Source: Bryobacterales bacterium
GTDB lineage: Bacteria; Acidobacteriota; Terriglobia; Bryobacterales; Bryobacteraceae
Direction: 5' to 3'
Assembly: GCA_003166875.1 (NCBI GenBank)
Contig: PMUN01000341.1
Span: forward strand, 1-57,879
Length of the DNA: 57,879 nucleotides
The notes beneath the pieces are model-generated. The model was not told the DNA's origin. It worked only from the letters and a program-made list of their open reading frames with translations, and made no database searches. Below, in pieces: positions 5,495 through 35,453 of this stretch (position 1 is its first letter; the number at the start of each line of letters is the position of its first letter). The translations under genes and the position numbers were made by a program.

Positions 5495-6304
5495 CTAGAC
5501 CGCGATCAAGTCGATTCTATGGACCACCGCTACAAAATCTTGCGGGCGCCGCGCGGGATCTTTGTCCGTCAGCTCCTGAATCAATTCCAGGAGCCGAGGA
5601 GGCGCTCCCAATCGCGCGAGCGGTTCCAGATCCACGGGCTGGTGCAGAATCAAATCGAAGATCCCGTCCACGGTCGGCGCTTCAAACGGCCGCGTCCCGG
5701 AGAGCAGCTCGAACAGCAGCACTCCGAAGGCGTATACGTCCACCAGGTGCGTTGGTTTCAGACCGCGGATTTGTTCCGGCGCCATGTAATAGGGCGTGCC
5801 GACCGTGAAACCGGCGCCGGTGAGCGAGAGATCCTCCGACTTGGCAATGCCGAAATCCACCAGCTTCACCTGGCCCGTGATGTCCACCCGGATATTGTCG
5901 GGTTTGACATCGCGATGGATGATGCCCTTCGAATGAACGTAGGCAAGCGCGCATGCAATCTGGCGCACCAAGGCAAGCTTCGAGCGCAGATCGCCGCTTC
6001 GCCCTTCGCGAATCTGTTTGCGCAGGCTTTCTCCCGCCAGGTACTCCATAACCAGGAACGGGCGTCCGTCCACTTCGCCGTAATCGTAAAACGCGATAAC
6101 GTTTTCGTGCGTGAAGCTTCCGGTGAGGCGGGCTTCGGCGAGAAAGCGAGCTTTGGTCTCCTGGTCGGCCAGGCCGGTTTCGGAGAGAATCTTGAAGGCC
6201 ACGGTGCGGCCCAGGTTGCGATCACGCGCCCGGTACACCTGGGCCTCGGTCCCGCCCAGGCATTCGAGCAGGTCGTACTTTCCAACGTGGTGCGGAAGTT
6301 GCAC
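5495..6304 (-). CDS. Ser/Thr protein kinase, catalytic domain only
   Basis: 269-aa ORF with Hanks motifs VAFKIL, HRDVKPDNI, DFGIA, MAPEQ. No TM, sensor or repeat domain. Confidence 0.9.
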   Translation of the reverse strand: MQLPHHVGKYDLLECLGGTEAQVYRARDRNLGRTVAFKILSETGLADQETKARFLAEARLTGSFTHENVIAFYDYGEVDGRPFLVMEYLAGESLRKQIREGRSGDLRSKLALVRQIACALAYVHSKGIIHRDVKPDNIRVDITGQVKLVDFGIAKSEDLSLTGAGFTVGTPYYMAPEQIRGLKPTHLVDVYAFGVLLFELLSGTRPFEAPTVDGIFDLILHQPVDLEPLARLGAPPRLLELIQELTDKDPARRPQDFVAVVHRIDLIAV

Positions 6305-6389
6305 GTTCGCCTTGATTATTCAAGAGTATAGCCTTAGCGAAGGCGGGGGGCGTAATAGTTTTGAAGAATTTGCCGATAGAGAAGGTGAG

Positions 6390-6725
6390 ATGCGCCGTCA
6401 AGAGAGAGCCGAGGTCGTAGTCGAGGTAGATGTCATGTGGACGGACCGCCAGGGGCATGAACGATTCGCCACTGCGCGCGCCATCGATATTTGCGAGTCC
6501 GGCATTCGGGTCCAGGTGCCGGAAGCTCTCCCGGAGCGTTCCTTTGTCAGATTGCGCGCAGACAAGATTGGATTGGCCGGCTCGGCGTCCGTGCGAAGCT
6601 GCATCAAGAAGGGCACCAAGTTCCTGGTTGGGCTGGAGTTCAGCGGAGGGATGAGGTGGAAGCGCCCAGCCGCCGTCAAAACACAGGCTGCGCCGGTCGA
6701 GACCCCGCTGCCGGTTGCCCGATAG
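6390..6725 (+). CDS. PilZ-domain protein (putative c-di-GMP receptor)
   Basis: Start chosen at ATG 6390 (MRRQERAEV). The longer ORF from 6111 overlaps the kinase gene on the other strand. RxxxR (RRQER) and DxSxxG-like (DICESG) motifs present. Confidence 0.7.
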   Translation: MRRQERAEVVVEVDVMWTDRQGHERFATARAIDICESGIRVQVPEALPERSFVRLRADKIGLAGSASVRSCIKKGTKFLVGLEFSGGMRWKRPAAVKTQAAPVETPLPVAR

Positions 6726-6760
6726 AAACTTCCTATCTGCCCGATAGAACTTTCCGATAA
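6718..6760. promoter_or_regulatory. Array of GATAG/CTATC motifs, including two near-identical 16-mers, upstream of amtB
   Basis: cccgatagaaacttcc (6718-6733) and cccgatagaactttcc (6740-6755). ctatc at 6733-6737 and gataa at 6756-6760. Confidence 0.35.
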
Positions 6761-6791
6761 TGTCCGCCTCTCTGTTAGAGGATCATGGACT

Positions 6792-8174
6792 ATGCCTTAT
6801 CGATTCTGGCTGGCGCTCGTGGCGCCGGCCCTTGCCGTGGCGCAAGCCCTGCCTCCGGCTACCGAGACTCGCCTCAGCAATCTGGAAGCTGCGGTCAAGT
6901 CGGCGCAGAGTGCCGGCGACAATGCCTGGATGCTGGTCAGCGCGGCGCTGGTTCTGATGATGACCGGTCCCGGCCTGGCCTTGTTCTATGGCGGGCTGGT
7001 GCGGCGCAAGAATGTCCTCAGCACCATGATGCACAGCTTCGCCCTGATGGCTGTGGTCAGCATCGTGTGGGCCATCGTCGGCTACAGTTTGGCTTTCGGC
7101 GAAGGGAACGCTTTCTTCGGCGACCTCCGTTATTTATTTCTTAACGGCGTGGGCGCCGCGCCGAATGCCGATTATGCGGGCACCATTCCGCAGCAGACCT
7201 TCATGATCTACCAGCTCATGTTCGCGATCATTACGCCCGCGCTGATTTCGGGGGCATACGCCGAGCGCATGAAATTCAGCGCCATGCTGCTGTTCACGGT
7301 GCTGTGGCTGCTGATTGTTTATTTCCCGCTGGCGCACATGGTGTGGGGAAAGGGCGGCTTCTTGAACGCGTTCTTAGGTGGAAAAGTCCCGTGCTTGGAT
7401 TTCGCGGGCGGGACGGTGGTGCACATCAGCTCCGGAGTCTCGGCCCTGGTGTGCGCTCTGTATCTTGGAAAGCGGCGCGGCTATATGACCGAGCCGATGA
7501 AGCCGCACAGCCTGGTGATCAGCGTTATCGGCGCCTGTTTGCTGTGGGTGGGTTGGTTCGGTTTTAATGCCGGCAGCGCGCTAGCGGCTTCGCCGCTGGC
7601 CACCAGCGCATTCGTGGCCACGCATTTCGCAACCGCCGCGGCGGCGCTGGGCTGGATGTTCGCCGAATGGATCAAGAATGGCAAGCCCAGCATGTTGGGC
7701 GCAATCTCCGGCGCAGTTGCGGGATTGGTTGCTATCACGCCCGCATCCGGATTCGTGAAACCGTTCCCGGCCATGCTGATCGGATTGGTGGCCGGGGTGC
7801 TGTGCTACTTCATGGTCACGGCCGTTAAAAGCAAGTTCGGCTATGATGACACTTTGGACGCCTTCGGAGTGCATGGCGCGGGCGGGACCATCGGCGCGCT
7901 GCTGACCGGCGTCTTCGCAACCAACCTGGTCAACGACGGATTGAAGGATTCAGCCGGCAAGGTTCTTCCTTTGGGAATGGTGGACGGCAACGGCGGCCAG
8001 GTGCTGAATCAGGCCATCGGCGTGCTGATTTCCTGGGCGCTGGCCATCGTAGGGACACTTATCATTTTGAAGATTTGCGACGCGTTGCTAGGCGTCCGTG
8101 TCTCGGCTGAGCAGGAGCTCGAAGGACTGGACGTGAGCATGCACGGTGAAGAAGGATATAATCTCGAAACGTAG
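6792..8174 (+). CDS. amtB: Ammonium transporter (Amt family)
   Basis: 460-aa ORF with a signal-like N-terminus and multi-TM profile. Typical Amt blocks DFAGGTVVHISSG and AFGVHGAGGTIGALLTG. Followed by a PII gene. Confidence 0.95.
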   Translation: MPYRFWLALVAPALAVAQALPPATETRLSNLEAAVKSAQSAGDNAWMLVSAALVLMMTGPGLALFYGGLVRRKNVLSTMMHSFALMAVVSIVWAIVGYSLAFGEGNAFFGDLRYLFLNGVGAAPNADYAGTIPQQTFMIYQLMFAIITPALISGAYAERMKFSAMLLFTVLWLLIVYFPLAHMVWGKGGFLNAFLGGKVPCLDFAGGTVVHISSGVSALVCALYLGKRRGYMTEPMKPHSLVISVIGACLLWVGWFGFNAGSALAASPLATSAFVATHFATAAAALGWMFAEWIKNGKPSMLGAISGAVAGLVAITPASGFVKPFPAMLIGLVAGVLCYFMVTAVKSKFGYDDTLDAFGVHGAGGTIGALLTGVFATNLVNDGLKDSAGKVLPLGMVDGNGGQVLNQAIGVLISWALAIVGTLIILKICDALLGVRVSAEQELEGLDVSMHGEEGYNLET

Positions 8175-8664: not shown

Positions 8665-10134
8665 ATGCGCTGTATGGCGAAACTCTGGCTACTTGTTGTC
8701 TTCACTTTTGCTCAGGCCTTTGCTCAACCCCAAATTGGGGGAGGCACCTGTAGCACGGTTTCTTTGAGCGGAAACTACGCGGTGACGCTCACGGGCCGGC
8801 AAGCCTCATCGACTGCATTCACGAGTGTTTACCAGGCAAATGGCGTGGCCAACTACGACGGCCAGGGACATGTCACTTTCACGCTCACCGCCAACAGTAA
8901 CGTGAGTGCGGTGCAGCCGGTGAAGGAAGCCGGCACGGTCAGCATTTCTTCGAATTGTACGGGGACGTTGACCTTTCCGACCGAGACCTTCAACCTGGCT
9001 GTTTACAACCAAGGCAAAGGGTTCCTCTTTTCGGGAACCGACAACACATCCTCGTTCTCCGGCACCGGTAGCACGCAGCCGGCTGCGTGCGTCACCGCAA
9101 CGCTGTCGGGAGTGTACGCTTTCAGCGCCAATGGATTTAATCTCAGCGGCACTGCGATATCCAGCGTCGCGGACTTGACGGGGCTTCTCCAGTTCGATGG
9201 GGTAGGCAAGCTGACCGGTAATTGGACCACGACCTCCGGCACCACCATGACCCAGGTTGCCGCCACTGGAACATACGCCGTCAACACTCCCAGCAGTTGC
9301 CTGGGCACGGCCACACTGGCCGACGCCAACGGCAAAGCATATACATTCGCTTTCAGCCTTAACGATCCAACGGGCGCGAATTTTCTTTTGCTCGCCTCCG
9401 GTCCGGAGATAACTTTTTCGGGGAACGGACACTCCTCCTATCTGAACCCCAGCCAGTCCGTCAGCAACGGGGCGAGCTTCAAGGCCGGCGAGACTGCGCC
9501 GGGATCGATTTTCTCGATCTTTGGGGAAAACCTGGGAGCGGCTCCGGGCGTGGATGCTGCGGTACTGCCGCTGCCGGGAAACATTGGTCCAGCGCACGTG
9601 ACCGTCAATGGCGAAACGGCTCCCCTTTTCTACGCGGGCCCGGGACAAATCAATGCGCAGATGCCTCTGGATATCCCGCCTGGTTTGGCAACGATCGTTG
9701 TCACCAATGGAAATGCGAAGAGCAATGCTGCCGCGGTGACGATTCCTCAGGCGGCGCCCGGGATTTTTATTTATGGGCCTGACAATCACGCTGTCGTCAT
9801 CAATCCAAGCGGGGCCACCAACGCGGACGGCGTACCGGCGCATGTCGGCGAAACTGTTGTGGCATACTTCACCGGCGGCGGACCGGTGACGCCATCCGGG
9901 ACGTGGGCCACTGGGGACGCTTCGCCGGACGGGAAGTCGCCAGTGACTTCCACCAACTCTGTTACTGTGAACGGCAAGGCCGCCGATGTCATTTATGTGG
10001 GTCTGTCGGGAGGCTCGGTGGGACTTTATCAGGCGAATTTTGTGATTCCCCAGGTGGCCGCAGGCGATCACCCGCTGGTGATTACTATCAACGGAGTGAA
10101 GTCGAACTCGGCTGCGATTACTGTGGCTGAATAA
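8665..10134 (+). CDS. Secreted protein with Solibacter-type C-terminal Ig-like domain (TIGR03437-like)
   Basis: ORF 8620..10134. The GTG at 8620 lies inside the hairpin, so ATG 8665 or 8674 is preferred (signal peptide MAKLWLLVVFTFAQAFAQ). C-terminal blocks SVSNGASFKAGETAPGSIFSIFGENLG...TVNGETAPLFYAGPGQINAQMP...AAPGIF. Confidence 0.7.
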   Translation: MRCMAKLWLLVVFTFAQAFAQPQIGGGTCSTVSLSGNYAVTLTGRQASSTAFTSVYQANGVANYDGQGHVTFTLTANSNVSAVQPVKEAGTVSISSNCTGTLTFPTETFNLAVYNQGKGFLFSGTDNTSSFSGTGSTQPAACVTATLSGVYAFSANGFNLSGTAISSVADLTGLLQFDGVGKLTGNWTTTSGTTMTQVAATGTYAVNTPSSCLGTATLADANGKAYTFAFSLNDPTGANFLLLASGPEITFSGNGHSSYLNPSQSVSNGASFKAGETAPGSIFSIFGENLGAAPGVDAAVLPLPGNIGPAHVTVNGETAPLFYAGPGQINAQMPLDIPPGLATIVVTNGNAKSNAAAVTIPQAAPGIFIYGPDNHAVVINPSGATNADGVPAHVGETVVAYFTGGGPVTPSGTWATGDASPDGKSPVTSTNSVTVNGKAADVIYVGLSGGSVGLYQANFVIPQVAAGDHPLVITINGVKSNSAAITVAE

Positions 10135-10165
10135 GCGTTGCCGGAACTAGAAAGGCACCGACCGG

Positions 10166-12835
10166 TTACTGGCTGGCTAAGGCCTCCATCGGCGAAATCC
10201 GTGCAGCGCGATGCGATGGCACCAGACACGCGACGAGAGACACCACGCCGATGATCGCGGCCGCGCCAGCCAGGATCGCCGGGTCAACCGGGGGCACATG
10301 ATACAGGACCGCCCGCATGGCTCGGCCCGCGAGCAAGCCTCCCAGGATGCCAAGCGTCGTGCCCGCGGCTAGCAAGCGCAGAGCGAGAGAGAAAAATTGG
10401 TTGCGGATCTGTTCCGGCCGCGCTCCCAATGCCATGCGAACGCCGATCTCCCGGCGGCGCTCGGTAACGGCGTAGCTCAATACGCCATAGGTGCCAATGG
10501 CGGTCAGCAGCAGAGCGATCGCCGAAAAGATGCCCGCCAGCAAAGCCGGTGAGCGGCGAGTTGTCAGGCTATCGGCGATGCGGGTTTCCATGGACCGGAG
10601 ATCGCTCACCGGCAACTCCGGGTCAATTCGCCTGACGGTCTCTTGCATCATCGACGCCATCGACTCCGGAGATAAGCTGGTGCGCGCAGTTATGAAAATG
10701 TCATCGCCGGCGCGGAAGATGTAGGGATAGTAGACCGCGCCTTGTGCGGCGTCGTCCGTAAGTCCAGCTTGCTTCACGGCACCTACTACGCCGACGACTG
10801 TGAATGCCTCGGCATCGGCTCTGGCTTCGCCGCCTTCGAACAAACGTTGGCCGACAGCGCTGGAATTTGGCCAATAATAACGAGCGAAGTCTTCATCCAC
10901 GACGCAGACCCGCTGGGTGCGGCGCGAATCGGCGGGCGTGAGGAAGCGGCCGGCCTGCAAGGAAAAGCCGAGAGCGCTGAAGTAATCGCCGCCCACGCCA
11001 TAAGAATAGTGACCGCGCAGAGTCTGGCCAGGCCGCAGGACGTAGCCTTTCACGGCAGCGGCACTTTTGCCGCTGTTGCCGCTTAGCGGAACATTGTTCA
11101 CTACGCCAGCCGTCAACACTCCCGGCAGTTGGCCGATTTCCTTGGTGAGCCTTTCAACGAACTGAAGGCGTGCCGTCGCGTCCGGATAGCTCTTCCAGGG
11201 AAGGGAAATGCGGCCTGTGAGAACATGTTCCGGACGGAAACCAGGCGCGACGGCTGTGGCCCGTTCGAGACTCAAGCCCAGCAATCCTGCGCCGGTCAAT
11301 AAAGATAACGCTAAGGCAATCTGCCCGACAATGAAACCATGCCGCAAACGTTGAGCGGCACGGCCGCTGGTTCCACCGCGACTTTCAGCTTGCAGCCTGT
11401 TGGTAAGGTGGTCACGAAGATTGAACCAGGCGATCGGCGCCGACAGCATGATCCCGATCAGGACGGCTCCAACAAGCGCAACTACTGCCAATCGCGTATC
11501 GAAGGCGATGCTGGCTCCCAGCGGTAAGCGATCCACGCCCAGCCGGGTCAGCAGACGGATTCCGCCAGCGCCGAGGCCGAGGCCGAGCAGTCCTCCAGTT
11601 AGAGCGAGCAGCGTAATTTCGACCATTACTTCGCTCACCACGTGTCGGCGGTTCGCGCCCAGCGCCTGCCGGACTGCCATTTCCTTGCTCCGGCCGTTGG
11701 CGCGGATGAGCAGCAGGTTTACCAGGTTGATTGCTCCTATCAGCAATAGAGCCAGCGCGCCCGATTGCATCAATAGCAACGTGGGACGGATCTCGGCAAC
11801 ATGATCGGCGTGGAGGGGGATCACGATCGATCGAAAACCGGCGTCGGCCATCGTCTTGGCCTGGGGATCGTCCACTTCCAGTGTGGCGTTCTGCGCGTCG
11901 ATTTGCGATTGAGCTTGCGCCAGCGTGGCGCCCGGTTTGAGGCGGGCGATCAACTGTTTGGAGTTGCCTCCCGAATGCCGCTCGGAGGGAGCGCGGTCTT
12001 GCGGGCGAGAGGCGAACGGCAAATAAAGCCGGGACTCCGAGGATAGAAAACGGAAGTCGGGAGGCAATACGCCGATTACGGTTTTCGGAACGCCGTCCAC
12101 GCGGATTTGGCGGCCGATCACGTGCGGATCGGTGTTGAAGCGCTGGCGCCAATAGACGTCGGTCAGAATGGCGACGTTGTCGGTTTCATAGGTAGTTTCG
12201 GCTTCTGTAAAAGTGCGCCCGAAACGAGGCCCGACACCGAGCGTAGTGAAAAACTCGGGAGAGACCCGCGTAATTTGCGCGCGTTCCGTGGAGCCGGTCT
12301 CGCCAATAATCCCCGTACCAAAGTTGTAGAGGGAGAGCGATGCGAAAGCTGGAATGCGACCGCGCCGTTCGTAGTAATTGGTGATGGAGGACCCATCGCG
12401 GTCAACGCCCGCTTTCGGGTAAGTGTTGAACATTGTGACCAGGCGGCTGGCCTCGGGAAACGGGAGCGGGCGGAGCAGGATGGAGTCCATCACGGCGAAA
12501 ATCGTGAGGTTGGCCCCGAGACAGATGGCCAGAGTGAGCAGGGCTGTGGCTGTGAATCCGGGCGTTTTTCGCAGCAGGCGGGTGGCGTATCGCAATTCCC
12601 GCAGAAGCTCGTCCAGCAAGTGCAGACCGCGCGCCTCGCGGCAGTCGCTCTTGACATTCTGCAGGCTTCCGAACTCAATGCGAGCCAGACGGGAGGCTTC
12701 TTCGGGCGCCACTCCTCGGCTCACCAGGTCGTCCGCGAATTGCTCCATGTGGAAACGCAACTCTTCGGACATGCCGTCCTCGAACTCGCGCCGAAACGTG
12801 AGTATGCGAAACAGTGAACGACTGCGCTTCCACAT
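10166..12835 (-). CDS. ADOP-family permease (MacB-like periplasmic domain plus FtsX, duplicated; no ATPase domain)
   Basis: 889-aa ORF with two FtsX-type 4-TM modules and large periplasmic loops. N-terminus FEDGMSEELRFHME...LRYATRLLRKTPGFT is typical of ADOP. Start is 1 nt after the padR stop. Confidence 0.9.
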   Translation of the reverse strand: MWKRSRSLFRILTFRREFEDGMSEELRFHMEQFADDLVSRGVAPEEASRLARIEFGSLQNVKSDCREARGLHLLDELLRELRYATRLLRKTPGFTATALLTLAICLGANLTIFAVMDSILLRPLPFPEASRLVTMFNTYPKAGVDRDGSSITNYYERRGRIPAFASLSLYNFGTGIIGETGSTERAQITRVSPEFFTTLGVGPRFGRTFTEAETTYETDNVAILTDVYWRQRFNTDPHVIGRQIRVDGVPKTVIGVLPPDFRFLSSESRLYLPFASRPQDRAPSERHSGGNSKQLIARLKPGATLAQAQSQIDAQNATLEVDDPQAKTMADAGFRSIVIPLHADHVAEIRPTLLLMQSGALALLLIGAINLVNLLLIRANGRSKEMAVRQALGANRRHVVSEVMVEITLLALTGGLLGLGLGAGGIRLLTRLGVDRLPLGASIAFDTRLAVVALVGAVLIGIMLSAPIAWFNLRDHLTNRLQAESRGGTSGRAAQRLRHGFIVGQIALALSLLTGAGLLGLSLERATAVAPGFRPEHVLTGRISLPWKSYPDATARLQFVERLTKEIGQLPGVLTAGVVNNVPLSGNSGKSAAAVKGYVLRPGQTLRGHYSYGVGGDYFSALGFSLQAGRFLTPADSRRTQRVCVVDEDFARYYWPNSSAVGQRLFEGGEARADAEAFTVVGVVGAVKQAGLTDDAAQGAVYYPYIFRAGDDIFITARTSLSPESMASMMQETVRRIDPELPVSDLRSMETRIADSLTTRRSPALLAGIFSAIALLLTAIGTYGVLSYAVTERRREIGVRMALGARPEQIRNQFFSLALRLLAAGTTLGILGGLLAGRAMRAVLYHVPPVDPAILAGAAAIIGVVSLVACLVPSHRAARISPMEALASQ

Positions 12836-31845: not shown

Positions 31846-33972
31846 GTGCGTGCTTCGATACTCGCGATTGCTATTTTTTCGCTGGCCGGGATTTGCTCCG
31901 CCCAGTCGTCTTTACCAGGCTGCGAAGCTCGTCCGGAGGTTCGGCAGGCGCTGCAGGAAAAGCTCCGGTCCCGGGATCTCGACAAGCTGAAATATGTCGA
32001 TCGAGTCGCCCTCCAGCACGCCGTTCTGGACGATTTGATCGCCAAGTATCCCCGTGAGCTGGAACCTTACCGCCGACTGATCAGTTTCGTACACTACGAG
32101 ACCGACGATTACCCGGCGCTCCAGGCGCGTTACCGGGAGCAGGCCAAGCAGCATCCGGACGATCCGCTAGCGTTGTATCTGGCTGGAGCGGTTTTGTTCC
32201 ATGCCGATACACCGGAAAGCATTCGCCTGCTGGACGCGGCCAACGCCAAGGCGCCGGGCTTCGTCTGGCCGAATCTCAAACTGGCTGATGTCTATTCGAG
32301 CGGAAAGCGGGTGGATAAGAAAAAGGCGGCCGAATATCTGGCGGCGTTCTTCACGGCTTGCCCCGGTTCTACGGATCGCGGAGCGCATTGGATGCTTGCC
32401 CAGGTAGGAGACAGCACGCTGCAAACTCGTGTCGCCACCGATCTTCGAAAACGCCTCGCCTCTGAAACTGATTTGGAAGAACTGAAACAGTACGAGACGT
32501 TATGGGGACTCGAGTTTCGCACTCACCCCCCTCAAGAACATGCGGCTGTGCGACAGCAGGTCTCCGAAGACTTGAAGCGCCTGGAGGCTCTCAACTCGAA
32601 GCCAGACGACGATTGGACGGCGCTGTTGAGGAAAGGTTACAAGCAGAGCGGCGCTCCCGAGGCAACGCTTACCGCACTGGACGATCGGATACTAAAGGAG
32701 TTCCCTTCCTCGGAGACAGCCTTTGGAGTTGCCAACGAGCGTTGGAAGAAAGTTCATAAAGAACCGGAGGACCAGAATGACGCTAAAGCATGGGCCGCTT
32801 ACAATCAGGTTCACAAGGAAGCGCTGAAGGGCTGGATCCGCGATTTCACCGATGTAACGTATCTTCCGCGCCAGTCTTGGTTCTTCGAGATCTTCAACGA
32901 CGATGCGGTTCCGGAGAAGGAAGGTATTGCGGCGGCGGAGCATTTCCTTAAAGCAGAACTGGACTACGATCGGCCGGCGTCCAACCCATATCTCGACTCG
33001 GCTGAGTATTTGCTCCAGCACAAATGGGAGACCAAGCGCGCACTGGAGCTGTTGCACAAGGCCCAGCCGTTGGTCGCCAAGGAAATCGATGAGGAGGGCC
33101 GCGATGATAACCGGACTGCGGACAAGCAGGAAGAATCGGAAAAGTACGTTGTCTACGAACAGCAAAACCTGGCGGGTCTGACGCTTCGCGCGGCTCGCAT
33201 GGCGGGGAAGCCGGTAGAGGCTCAAGCGTTGCGCGCCTCCGTTGAGGGACCGCCGCCCAAGGCCAAGACGCGTGAATCCAACTACTGGCTAAATCGAGCA
33301 CGTTTGGCTGTGCTCGAGAACCGCAAAGCGGACGGCTTGACCTATTATCAACTGGCGTTACAGACTCGCGTTTCGCCTCCGACGCCCTGGCACGGAAAGC
33401 TGGAGGATAATCTCACGGATGAGGCGCGCCTTTTATGGAAGGACATAGGAGGCACGGAAGTAGCTTGGAATGTTTGGAGCAAACCGCCCGCCGCCAAACC
33501 TGCTGAGCTGGCCGAGGGCCGCTGGGAAAAGCCCAAGAAACCGATTCCTTCGTTTGAACTGGCGGACCTGTCCGGCAAGACCTGGAAGCTGAAGACGCTG
33601 GAAGGGAAAACGATCCTGATCAACTTGTGGGCCACCTGGTGCGGACCCTGCAACGCGGAGCTCCCACACTTCCAGAAGCTCTACGAAAAAGTGAAGGACC
33701 GTCCGGATTTTCAGATCCTGACCTTCAATATCGACGAGGACCTTGGACTGGTGGAACCTTTTATGAAGGACAAGGGCTACACATTCCCGGTGCTGCCGGC
33801 GTATAGTCTGGTGGTGAACTTACTGGATGGTTACGCCATTCCTCAAAACTGGGTGGTCGATCCGCAAGGGACTTGGCGGTGGACCCAGATAGGTTTCGAT
33901 GGAGCGCCGGATTGGATTGAAAGCATGATCCAGCGCATGGAGGCGTTGAAGAAGAGCGAGGGCGGGCTGTAG
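31846..33972 (+). CDS. Secreted helical-repeat (TPR-like) protein fused to a C-terminal TlpA/ResA-type thioredoxin domain
   Basis: 708 aa. GTG start preceded by AAGGAGG. Signal peptide present. C-terminal LINLWATWCGPCNAELPHF (CxxC). Confidence 0.8.
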   Translation: MRASILAIAIFSLAGICSAQSSLPGCEARPEVRQALQEKLRSRDLDKLKYVDRVALQHAVLDDLIAKYPRELEPYRRLISFVHYETDDYPALQARYREQAKQHPDDPLALYLAGAVLFHADTPESIRLLDAANAKAPGFVWPNLKLADVYSSGKRVDKKKAAEYLAAFFTACPGSTDRGAHWMLAQVGDSTLQTRVATDLRKRLASETDLEELKQYETLWGLEFRTHPPQEHAAVRQQVSEDLKRLEALNSKPDDDWTALLRKGYKQSGAPEATLTALDDRILKEFPSSETAFGVANERWKKVHKEPEDQNDAKAWAAYNQVHKEALKGWIRDFTDVTYLPRQSWFFEIFNDDAVPEKEGIAAAEHFLKAELDYDRPASNPYLDSAEYLLQHKWETKRALELLHKAQPLVAKEIDEEGRDDNRTADKQEESEKYVVYEQQNLAGLTLRAARMAGKPVEAQALRASVEGPPPKAKTRESNYWLNRARLAVLENRKADGLTYYQLALQTRVSPPTPWHGKLEDNLTDEARLLWKDIGGTEVAWNVWSKPPAAKPAELAEGRWEKPKKPIPSFELADLSGKTWKLKTLEGKTILINLWATWCGPCNAELPHFQKLYEKVKDRPDFQILTFNIDEDLGLVEPFMKDKGYTFPVLPAYSLVVNLLDGYAIPQNWVVDPQGTWRWTQIGFDGAPDWIESMIQRMEALKKSEGGL

Positions 33973-34014
33973 GCACAAAAGGAGAAGGTTGGGCGTCCAA
34001 CTCGCGGACGGACC

Positions 34015-34043
34015 TTGTACAATCGAATTGCGCTTCGTAGAAT
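34015..34043 (+). promoter_or_regulatory. Near-consensus sigma70-type promoter abutting the 34047 ORF (leaderless or very short leader)
   Basis: TTGTAC (34015-34020), 17-nt spacer, TAGAAT (34038-34043). ATGs at 34047 and 34056. No Shine-Dalgarno. Confidence 0.35.
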
Positions 34044-34046
34044 GCC

Positions 34047-34496
34047 ATGGCGGATATGGAAATCACGCAGATTGAGGCTGATGCGCTGATAGCCATGGAA
34101 AAACACCGCGTCGACGACACGGAATGGTTGTTTTCTGCTCCGGGCGGTAGGCTTGCAATTCTCCTTCTTTCATCGGACAAACGAGAACACTTCATCCTCG
34201 ACATCAGTCGCGCCCAGATAAAGCTAACGAAGGCAACATACCAGAACCGAGCCCGTCAGGCGATTATCTTGATTCGGCTTGATCTCGACGGCCGGCCGCA
34301 TCGTAACCCCGACGGCATAGAGATCCCTTGTCCTCACCTGCACATATACCGCGAAGGCCACGGCGATAAATGGGCGATCCCGGCTCCCGCAGATAGATAT
34401 ACGAACACGTCGGATCTTCTCTTCACTTTCGAAATCTTCATGGCACACTGCAACATCACGACGCCACCGATTATCCAGAGAGGGCTTTTCTCGTGA
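34047..34496 (+). CDS. Hypothetical His-rich protein, first gene of a two-gene cassette
   Basis: 149-aa ORF with coding-like composition. Block [25 protein letters not shown]. Its stop overlaps the next gene's start (GTGA). I cannot name a family. Confidence 0.6.
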
Positions 34497-35266
34497 CCAT
34501 ATTGCAAGAAATCGAAAAACTTCTTAATGACTACCGTGCCTGGTTGAAGGACAAAACCACCCTGCGGGAAGTGAACGGCTCTTGGGTTGAGATTACGACC
34601 CCTTACCTCGACCGGCATAACGATGCGCTGCAGATCTATGCGCGGCAAGAGAACGGGGGGTACGTCTTGACGGACGACAGTTACACAATACACGACCTTG
34701 AAAGCTCCGGCTGCAACCTCAACACGGAGAAGCGGCGGGACCTTCTGAAGATGACTCTCAACGGCTTTGGCGTAAAGCTGAACTCGGAAGCCCTGGAAGT
34801 GCACGCTACAGCGGAAAATTTCCCGGTTCACAAGCACAATCTCCTTCAAGCCATGCTTGCGGTGAACGATCTGTTCTATCTTGCAAAGCCGGTTGTGGAG
34901 AGCCTGTTCTATGAAGACGTGGTTACGTGGCTTGACGCGAATGACATCCGATACACCCCTAAAGTTAAGTTCACCGGCACAAGCGGTTACGATCATTTGT
35001 TCGATTTTGTTGTCCCGAAATCTCGAAAGCAGCCGGAGCGTATCCTGCAGGCGATCAACCGCCCTATCGGCGACACAGCAAAGTTGTTTATCCTTGCTTG
35101 GCTCGATACCCGGCAAGTGCGCCCTCCCGAATCAAAGGCATACGTCGTCCTGAATGATAATGAGCAGACGATCTCAAGCGCCGTGCTAGAGGCTTTCCGC
35201 AGCTATCAGATCCAGCCCGTGCCATTCAGTCGCCGCGCTGACGTCGTGACTGAGCTTGCCGCCTAG
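34493..35266 (+). CDS. DUF1828/DUF1829-type protein (function unknown)
   Basis: 257 aa. N-terminal [18 protein letters not shown]...[14 protein letters not shown] and C-terminal [15 protein letters not shown] resemble the DUF1828 plus DUF1829 architecture as I recall it. Confidence 0.7.
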
Positions 35267-35453
35267 GCCTACTGAGCGCCAGAACCACGGGTCACCGGGC
35301 CATTACTACTGATTCTTCTTCGTAAACATCAGGTTACGCAAAACTTTCTGTTTACCAATTGCCTTCTCGTGTGATACGATAAAGAAGCTTCGTGGATCGC
35401 ATCCGGGAAGCGGTCTTGCCAAATCCCCAAAAACGGAGTAACGACGCGCCAGA

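Follow-up and report, generated by a model that had tools for sequence, protein, structure and literature searches.

Does an overlapping pair of small genes, set among the housekeeping genes of an acidobacterium, represent an undescribed system, and what could it do for its host? The question is raised by a cassette of two open reading frames (ORFs), here gene 1 and gene 2, in contig PMUN01000341.1 (assembly GCA_003166875.1) of a Bryobacterales bacterium; the whole stretch analysed, 57,879 nt, is called the window. An earlier note, drawn up from the letters alone, had pointed out that the two ORFs overlap by GTGA, as is seen in the sequence at 34493-34496, and had read them as an undescribed, horizontally acquired, self-contained module such as a phage-defence or toxin-antitoxin (TA)-like pair. 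We found that the cassette belongs to a catalogued family of phage defence candidates and spreads horizontally as a two-gene unit, and a phage-defence or TA-like role is our leading reading of it.

Family membership and the two proteins

Both proteins match the PDC-M24 models of PADLOC-DB v2 over their full length, and their genes are adjacent and in the order A then B. The product of gene 1 matched PDLC04538 (PDC-M24A) with E = 4.3e-56 (residues 4-148, profile 1-145 of 146), and the product of gene 2 matched PDLC04539 (PDC-M24B) with E = 2.5e-104 (residues 6-257, profile 3-255 of 255). The PDC set comprises 145 phage defence candidates that were nominated on the 'guilt by embedding' principle, from their positions inside BREX, DISARM and type I restriction loci (10.1101/2024.01.29.577857), and supplement file 8 of that study lists cassette CAS_00098 with the entry 'Assign as candidate PDC-M24' (Payne et al. 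2024, 10.1101/2024.01.29.577857). The pair can therefore no longer be called undescribed. In NCBIfam, no model matched either protein, and the PHROGs matches of both were families of unknown function. In addition, an E. coli DUF1828-DUF1829 protein, WP_000968518.1, appears as a 'predicted novel defense gene' in DefensePredictor Table S5 (PMC13092281). Judged by these profile matches, the cassette is a further member of the candidate family PDC-M24. Homologues of gene 1 formed 3458 clusters at 90% identity and 1059 at the 50% level, and those of gene 2 formed 5872 clusters at 90% identity.

The domain architecture proposed earlier for gene 2 was upheld by Pfam, which placed DUF1828 (E = 2.3e-29, residues 36-124) and DUF1829 (E = 2.6e-29, residues 162-248) in this order, each at 102 bits against gathering cut-offs of 22 and 22.2. 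The AlphaFold2 model of gene 2 was confident over residues 150-257 (predicted local distance difference test score, pLDDT, ~90; about 86-95). Its Foldseek matches were Can2/Card1, VC1899, the R2 restriction-like endonuclease, McrC, Bax1 and MspJI, all of which are PD-(D/E)xK nucleases. Can2/Card1 and VC1899 were matched with E = 2e-4 to 2e-3 and probability 0.99-1.0, at TM-scores of only ~0.35. DUF1829 is also assigned to Pfam clan CL0236 PDDEXK (DefensePredictor Table S5, PMC13092281); a sequence and profile search of the PDB with gene 2 gave no match. As modelled, the C-terminal domain of gene 2 is a PD-(D/E)xK nuclease fold. Across sequences of 31-86% identity, E141, D142, E182, R183, N221 and D222 were invariant and D171 nearly so, but the residue two positions after E182 is I or V where the canonical lysine would be expected. 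The protein may plausibly be catalytic. In the N-terminal part, the invariant residues were D40, D44, D61, R81, K114, H115 and Q119, together with D126 just beyond the DUF1828 match. The model of the DUF1828 part was of moderate confidence (pLDDT 58-76), and its predicted secondary structure comprised four strands, two helices and two strands, which is not Rossmann-like. A CARF-like N-terminal domain was considered and rejected, since Pfam found no CARF domain and the secondary structure was not beta-alpha-beta.

For gene 1, which the earlier note could assign to no nameable family, Pfam gave DUF6978 (PF22398) with E = 1.1e-43 and 149.1 bits against a cut-off of 29.6, over profile positions 1-133 of 133. 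The compact His/Asp block that had drawn attention to this protein, residues 85-109, proved to be the family signature. H85, N87, P88, H97 and H99 were retained in 97-99% of 98 gene 1 representatives (37-60% identity), and K19, R68 and R77 in 95-99% of diverse representatives; the full signature, K19, R68, R77, H85-x-N-P-D and H97-x-H99-x-Y-x-E-G, was retained in 87-99% of them. This cluster of His, Asn, Asp and Glu residues points to a metal or nucleotide site. The confident AlphaFold2 model (pLDDT 79) was beta-rich with terminal helices, and its best Foldseek matches in the PDB and BFVD reached E values of 0.13-0.25 and TM-scores of at most 0.4. The folds that the earlier note had proposed to look for with HHpred and Foldseek, nucleases or metal hydrolases, thus emerged for gene 2, as the PD-(D/E)xK fold, but not for gene 1.

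Other assignments of gene 1 were tried and rejected. The local motif PHLHIY resembles that of HIT hydrolases, but no HIT structure was among the Foldseek matches, and hhalign against human HINT1 gave a probability of 0.6%. Reading the motif as cupin (HxHx3E) or JAMM-like was unsupported by Pfam and Foldseek. The idea that the two genes are homologous was likewise dismissed (hhalign probability 0.3%), and no recognisable DNA-binding domain was found in gene 1.

Pairing, horizontal spread and the insertion site

The GTDB species-representative genomes were scanned with gene 1 alone, which yielded 226 loci; pairing and context counts were taken from the best 80 of these. The related loci are mostly metagenome-assembled, and neighbouring ORFs were called by a simple greedy rule. 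The best 80 loci were mostly from Bryobacterales and Terriglobia and, at ~58-65% identity, included Verrucomicrobiota, Planctomycetota, Kiritimatiellia, Gammaproteobacteria, Thermodesulfovibrionales and others. In every one of them (80/80), a gene 2 homologue lay directly downstream of gene 1 on the same strand, and the identities of the two proteins co-varied (r = 0.84). The co-occurrence across phyla that the earlier note had proposed to look for was therefore found. Among the IMG/VR contigs found with gene 2, a DUF6978 gene adjoined nearly every full-length relative, usually upstream.

The earlier note had also described the genes as translationally coupled. The 4-nt overlap is indeed common in the family, most relatives having an ATGA equivalent, but coupling by this overlap is not obligatory, because the pair is convergent rather than an overlapping operon in 12 viral loci. 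In this sub-clade of viral contigs (L186, L192-L194, L198, L202, L203, L212, L220, L225, L229 and L234), the DUF1828-DUF1829 gene comes first and is followed immediately by the DUF6978 gene, which is read from the other strand. The two genes thus stay together even where operon structure and translational coupling have been lost. Two fused DUF6978-DUF1828 ORFs (P0272 and P0359) were considered as a Rosetta-stone link and set aside; they are truncated at the ends of contigs and could also arise through a frameshift in the 4-nt overlap, so they carry little weight.

The surroundings of the cassette vary greatly. Its 619 flanking ORFs fell into 542 clusters, and its location differed in almost every species. 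DNA similarity among cassettes ended at the stop codon and 0-30 nt from the ATG, even between copies of 85-92% identity, and cassette GC was lower than that of the flanks in 74/74 loci, by 7.0 points on average. The cassette proteins were also better preserved between orders than were the housekeeping genes of the same contigs: between a Terracidiphilus contig and the window, IspD and IspF were 52% and 49% identical, and the cassette proteins 72% and 77%. In vertical descent, represented by the window and its syntenic sister species (L011, described below), the cassette was no better conserved than its neighbours, the thioredoxin-fusion gene excepted. Because the excess identity is found in Terracidiphilus and not in vertical descent, horizontal transfer is the simplest explanation. 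The varied sites, the similarity ending with the coding sequences, the low GC and the cross-order conservation therefore indicate horizontal spread, and these comparisons point to a real, horizontally spreading two-gene unit. The horizontally acquired, self-contained module of the earlier note is thereby borne out by the strict pairing, the varied contexts, the relatives without the cassette and the GC difference. Of the 80 copies, about 7 seem to be truncated or frameshifted; in some, gene 1 is damaged beside an intact gene 2, and in others the reverse holds. Assembly errors are possible in these. No second copy of the cassette was seen in any genome among the 80 loci.

At the window's own site, full synteny was found in one species, the Bryobacterales metagenome-assembled genome (MAG) MFD05521.bin.2.108 (L011; Table 1). 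The cassette was present in 24/24 contigs read with an identical RRM protein. In contrast to the sister species, none of 80 metagenome relatives (PIN-TRAM protein 64-89% identical) carried either cassette gene ahead of RRM, so that the presence/absence check proposed in the earlier note came out in its favour. In several of these cassette-less relatives PGDH directly abuts the RRM gene, and in others unrelated genes lie between the two. Because the sister shares the site and the other relatives lack the cassette there, entry between PGDH and RRM preceded the split between the window and L011 lineages.

Judging from gene content, the PGDH/RRM junction is a variable spot. The thioredoxin/AhpC-fusion gene of the window also looks like a lineage-specific insertion: it is missing in relatives with PGDH next to RRM (L103, L104, L107, L116 and L136), it is the least conserved flanking gene between the window and L011 (77% vs 86-93%), and apparently it too entered the spot before the two lineages split. 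In L095, an unrelated 295-aa gene occupies the junction.

The composition of the window copy accords in part with foreign origin. The AT-richness that the earlier note had judged by eye was borne out by computed GC, which was 53.2% for the cassette vs 59.0% for the window; this value lies at the 1.3th percentile of 1220-nt windows and is the sole such minimum in the 57.9 kb. The deficit falls mostly at codon positions 1 and 2, and GC at position 3 (GC3) was 0.61/0.66 for the two genes vs 0.60-0.74 in neighbouring genes. Thus the GC half of the proposed composition check gave a clear result, but codon usage compared with the neighbours was not clearly foreign.

The edges carry none of the usual marks of an integrated element, as had been noticed before. 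A tRNA scan of the whole window found none, an Rfam search of the same stretch found no family, neither an integrase nor prophage genes occurred within 8 kb on either side, and the only flanking repeats were short and chance-like. A search around the cassettes for a conserved promoter, leader, terminal repeats or target motif also found none. The neighbours are PGDH, the 708-aa thioredoxin/AhpC-fusion, RRM, PIN-TRAM, IspD and IspF genes, in agreement with the thioredoxin-fusion and RNA-binding protein genes recognised earlier. On the right, the native upstream region of the RRM gene starts at ~35289 by comparison with the closest relatives and at 35370 with more distant ones, and it is kept in cassette-less relatives.

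This upstream region deserves mention in its own right. The ~165 nt at 35289-35453 are strongly conserved in relatives: identity is 84% across 192 nt for L094 and ~80% across 110 nt for L095, L098, L099 and L120. Such conservation, unusually high for intergenic DNA, suggests a conserved 5' untranslated region or regulatory element belonging to the RRM gene; no Rfam family matched it.

Evidence for a defence role and competing explanations

Among 149 immediate neighbours of the cassette in relatives, MmeI-type IIG restriction-methylases and type I specificity subunits were the most recurrent Pfam/PADLOC families, and the remainder were scattered housekeeping genes such as PolA, RecA, AcrB, RseP and PheT. 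The embedding on which the PDC-M24 nomination is based was seen in relatives L026, L044 and L019 (MmeI type IIG) and in L088 (reverse transcriptase and HsdR). An MmeI-type gene, intact or decaying, lies directly upstream of the cassette in six loci (L044, L026, L019, L029, L021 and L032). The cassette was also found among integrase, serine recombinase and IS91-type genes in L003, a 6.6-Mb acidobacterial genome, and on an IncP plasmid and an Acetobacter plasmid. All 18 matching records among GenBank phages (18/18) were temperate phages, prophages or satellites of Firmicutes, and in Staphylococcus phage 37 and Streptococcus prophage Javan642 a distant pair lies between repressor and integrase in the same direction. 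The gap between repressor and integrase is a classical site of prophage-encoded defence genes.

Several of these loci showed further details. The MmeI-type gene is intact in L044 (495-3281), lies at 3313-6074 in L026 and 5320-7946 in L019, and survives as remnants in L029, L021 and L032; outside L044 it is broken or frameshifted to varying degree beside an intact cassette. A short conserved leader, 'CCAAGGAGACGAACGTAAA', in the MmeI loci looks like the 3' end of the MmeI gene. The Kiritimatiellia MAG L088 has a 645-aa reverse-transcriptase-domain protein (6050-7984) upstream of the cassette and a type I HsdR (9208-12297) downstream, and this locus is a small defence island. In L003, a third ORF of 195 aa (9217-9804) without a Pfam match starts 4 nt before the gene 2 stop on the same strand, possibly an accessory gene in that lineage.

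Stand-alone ORFs with DUF1828 only were also seen in IMG/VR contigs L201, L230, L232, L233 (6007-6402), L235, L237 and L239. Those of the first six are 53-68% identical to gene 2 residues 3-124/131, and that of L239 is weaker (40%, residues 7-137). The two inspected, in L201 and L233, end just past the 'AVNDLF' helix; neither a DUF1829 domain nor a detectable DUF6978 ORF was found at any of the seven loci, and the L201 ORF adjoins a 572-aa serine recombinase. They could be phage decoys acting against defence, or gene fragments at attachment sites.

Taken together, the window holds a resident PDC-M24 copy, which entered in an ancestor that its host shared with a single sister Bryobacterales species and has been kept since, and we consider it somewhat more probable than not that this copy serves as a two-protein defence against phages or mobile elements. 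In this scheme, the two proteins would act as a complex. The PD-(D/E)xK-type domain of PDC-M24B would bind or cut DNA, and its N-terminal DUF1828 would probably sense or regulate. PDC-M24A would be the obligate small partner, whose putative metal or nucleotide site may trigger, restrain or complement the nuclease-fold protein. By analogy with HipAD, the roles could also be reversed, with B as the regulator and A as the toxic enzyme.

Several observations weigh against a defence role of this kind. Housekeeping rather than defence genes surround the cassette in the window and in most acidobacterial loci, and the window copy is neither embedded in nor beside a BREX, DISARM or restriction-modification locus. 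The neighbourhood check suggested by the earlier note thus gave a divided answer, with restriction families the most recurrent neighbours among relatives, in counts made without a formal background, but housekeeping genes around the window copy itself. Identities of 70-86% across many genomes are unusually high for a defence gene. The canonical lysine of the (D/E)xK motif is not at its expected position in gene 2, where the motif reads E182-R183-I/V, and the DUF1829 protein of HipAD was modelled as a DNA-binding, antitoxin-like partner and not as a nuclease (PMC13092281). For gene 1, sequence, profile and Foldseek searches found no relative in the PDB or BFVD, and just one of five AlphaFold2 models was confident. 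The literature library that was searched contained no experimental report on PDC-M24 or DUF6978.

Many of the same facts could be read as those of a selfish addiction module of the TA type, in which one protein would be toxic and the other would neutralise it, so that loss is costly and there is no real protection from phages. The small two-gene operon with its 4-nt overlap and the smaller gene first, the strict pairing in 80/80 loci, the arbitrary intergenic sites amid housekeeping genes, the occurrence on plasmids and the persistence of intact cassettes beside decaying MmeI restriction genes would all suit such a module, and the DUF1829 protein of HipAD has itself been proposed to be antitoxin-like (PMC13092281). 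However, no toxin or antitoxin family in Pfam, NCBIfam or PADLOC was matched at thresholds; the sole hint was Ntox24 (E = 0.052, 14.3 bits against a cut-off of 24). Gene 1 has no recognisable DNA-binding domain, the convergent arrangement in 12 viral loci is atypical of type II TA operons, and the degraded loci include both sorts, gene 1 damaged with gene 2 intact and the reverse, although these may be assembly errors. Addiction and defence by abortive infection are moreover not mutually exclusive. We regard addiction without protection as unlikely, if still worth serious consideration.

A routine function in the cell, for example in DNA repair or in the processing of nucleic acids, that happens to be encoded by two co-evolving genes would agree with the presence of the cassette in all 24 contigs with an identical RRM protein, its retention since before the split from the sister species, its high amino-acid conservation and a GC3 that has largely converged on the host value. 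Such a function would sit poorly with close relatives that lack the cassette at this site, with a patchy distribution across phyla at identities far above those of housekeeping genes, with copies in prophages, satellites and plasmids, and with the ~7 of 80 copies that look truncated or frameshifted, and we hold it to be very improbable. The least probable of the explanations, in our estimate, is a minimal self-mobilising nuclease cassette, in which the nuclease-fold protein and its His-motif partner would insert little beyond their own coding sequences into arbitrary intergenic sites with no recombinase. It would account for the location that varies in nearly every species, for similarity of 85-92% identical copies that stops a few nt from the coding sequences at start and stop codons, and for window edges without integrase, tRNA or repeats, and gene 2 does have a nuclease fold. 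Yet the copies showed neither conserved ends nor target-site duplications and had no target motif in common, and none of the 80 loci came from a genome with more than one copy. Some copies brought along the 3' end of the neighbouring MmeI gene, as would be expected if larger fragments were transferred passively and then trimmed by deletion, and many defence and TA cassettes show the same pattern.

PDC-M24 is an abundant family, with about 3,500 (gene 1) and 5,900 (gene 2) clusters at 90% identity and members in at least 226 species-representative genomes as well as in prophages, satellites and plasmids. To its description we add that the pairing of A and B is essentially obligate across phyla, that the spreading unit barely exceeds the coding sequences, that the cassette is particularly frequent among soil Acidobacteriota and well conserved there, and that the DUF6978 partner has no recognisable fold yet a sharply conserved His/Asn/Asp/Glu cluster. 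If the family is defensive, as we infer, it would contribute a new effector with a nuclease fold, together with a partner of a new kind; if it is not, it would be a clean case of how small cassettes persist and move.

Features of the locus and comparison with known systems

Table 1. Features of the cassette and its surroundings in the window, with protein identity to the syntenic sister species L011
Feature	Position	Strand	Description	Identity to L011
PGDH				91%
Thioredoxin/AhpC fusion	31846-33972		708 aa	77%
Left junction	33973-34046	+	intergenic after thioredoxin-fusion gene; hairpin 33988-34001; no sequence common with other cassettes	
Promoter-like site TTGTAC-17-TAGAAT	34015-34043	+	consensus match only, 9 of 12	
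Gene 1 ORF	34047-34496	+	149 aa; DUF6978 / PADLOC PDC-M24A	79%
Signature H-x-N-P-D ... H-x-H-x-Y-x-E-G	34299-34373	+	codons 85-109 of gene 1	
GTGA start/stop overlap, gene 1 with gene 2	34493-34496	+		
Gene 2 ORF	34493-35266	+	257 aa; DUF1828-DUF1829 / PADLOC PDC-M24B	86%
DUF1828 domain of gene 2	34598-34864	+	residues 36-124; Pfam	
DUF1829 domain of gene 2	34976-35236	+	residues 162-248; predicted PD-(D/E)xK restriction-endonuclease-like fold	
Right junction	35267-35288	+	similarity among cassettes stops at stop codon	
RRM				93%
PIN-TRAM				92%
IspD				93%
IspF				86%
SDR				89%

The start of gene 1 had been described earlier as leaderless, with a promoter ending 3 nt before the ATG. The sequence and spacing are present as described: TTGTAC at 34015-34020 is followed after 17 nt by TAGAAT at 34038-34043, then by 3 nt (GCC) and the ATG at 34047. 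However, the match is no better than chance. The promoter scan, which gave TGTACA-16-TAGAAT as an alternative spacing for the same site, found 3 such sites in 2.1 kb vs 1.4 +/- 1.3 in shuffles. A -10 hexamer 3 nt before the ATG is too near for canonical sigma-70 transcription to begin at the A of that codon, and a transcript from this site would more likely start inside or just past the first codon. The lack of a Shine-Dalgarno sequence held up, as no GGAG/GAGG/AGGA/AAGG-type tetramer occurred within 20 nt of the gene 1 start. A Shine-Dalgarno-like sequence is present upstream of gene 1 in 48/81 loci, and the window locus is the only one of these 81 in which a -10-like hexamer lies 3 nt before the ATG. 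The promoter-like site is not conserved in other loci, and because the region upstream of gene 1 is unconserved even in L011, the promoter would be specific to the window lineage. Leaderless expression is hence not a family-wide trait, and a leaderless promoter in the window lineage is unproven. The N-terminus MAD... of the gene 1 protein is kept in all relatives, and position 34047 is therefore the start of gene 1. A perfect palindrome, TTGTACAA (34015-34022), overlaps the -35-like hexamer, and L011 keeps TGTACAAT at ~7941-7950, 27 nt farther from the ATG; the palindrome could be an operator or a product of chance.

Finally, the cassette was compared with known systems. With PADLOC PDC-M24 it shares full-length matches to both profile hidden Markov models (A, 4-148 of 149; B, 6-257 of 257), gene order and adjacency. 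It differs in setting: the catalogue entry, a computational nomination only, is based on restriction/BREX embedding, whereas the window copy lies among housekeeping genes of a Bryobacterales-like acidobacterium. With the validated two-gene anti-phage system DS-6/HipAD it has DUF1829 in common, which occurs there in the non-kinase partner DS-6B (PMC13092281). However, DS-6B has DUF3037 at its N-terminus and a HipA-family kinase as its partner, whereas the window protein has DUF1828 and is paired with DUF6978. The type III CRISPR CARF-nuclease effectors Can2/Card1/VC1899 are the best structural matches of gene 2 and share its predicted PD-(D/E)xK nuclease domain. In contrast to them, gene 2 has no CARF domain in Pfam, its predicted N-terminal secondary structure is not Rossmann-like, and no cyclase or CRISPR genes lie near the window cassette. 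Type II TA operons resemble the cassette in their two small genes, 4-nt overlap and mobile, patchy distribution on plasmids and in prophages, but the cassette has neither a toxin or antitoxin family match nor a DNA-binding antitoxin domain, and some of its relatives are convergent. Lastly, the window copy differs from the defence genes of prophage lysogeny modules in being chromosomal, with no prophage genes within 8 kb, whereas distant pairs of the same family occupy exactly that position in Staphylococcus phage 37 and Streptococcus prophage Javan642.

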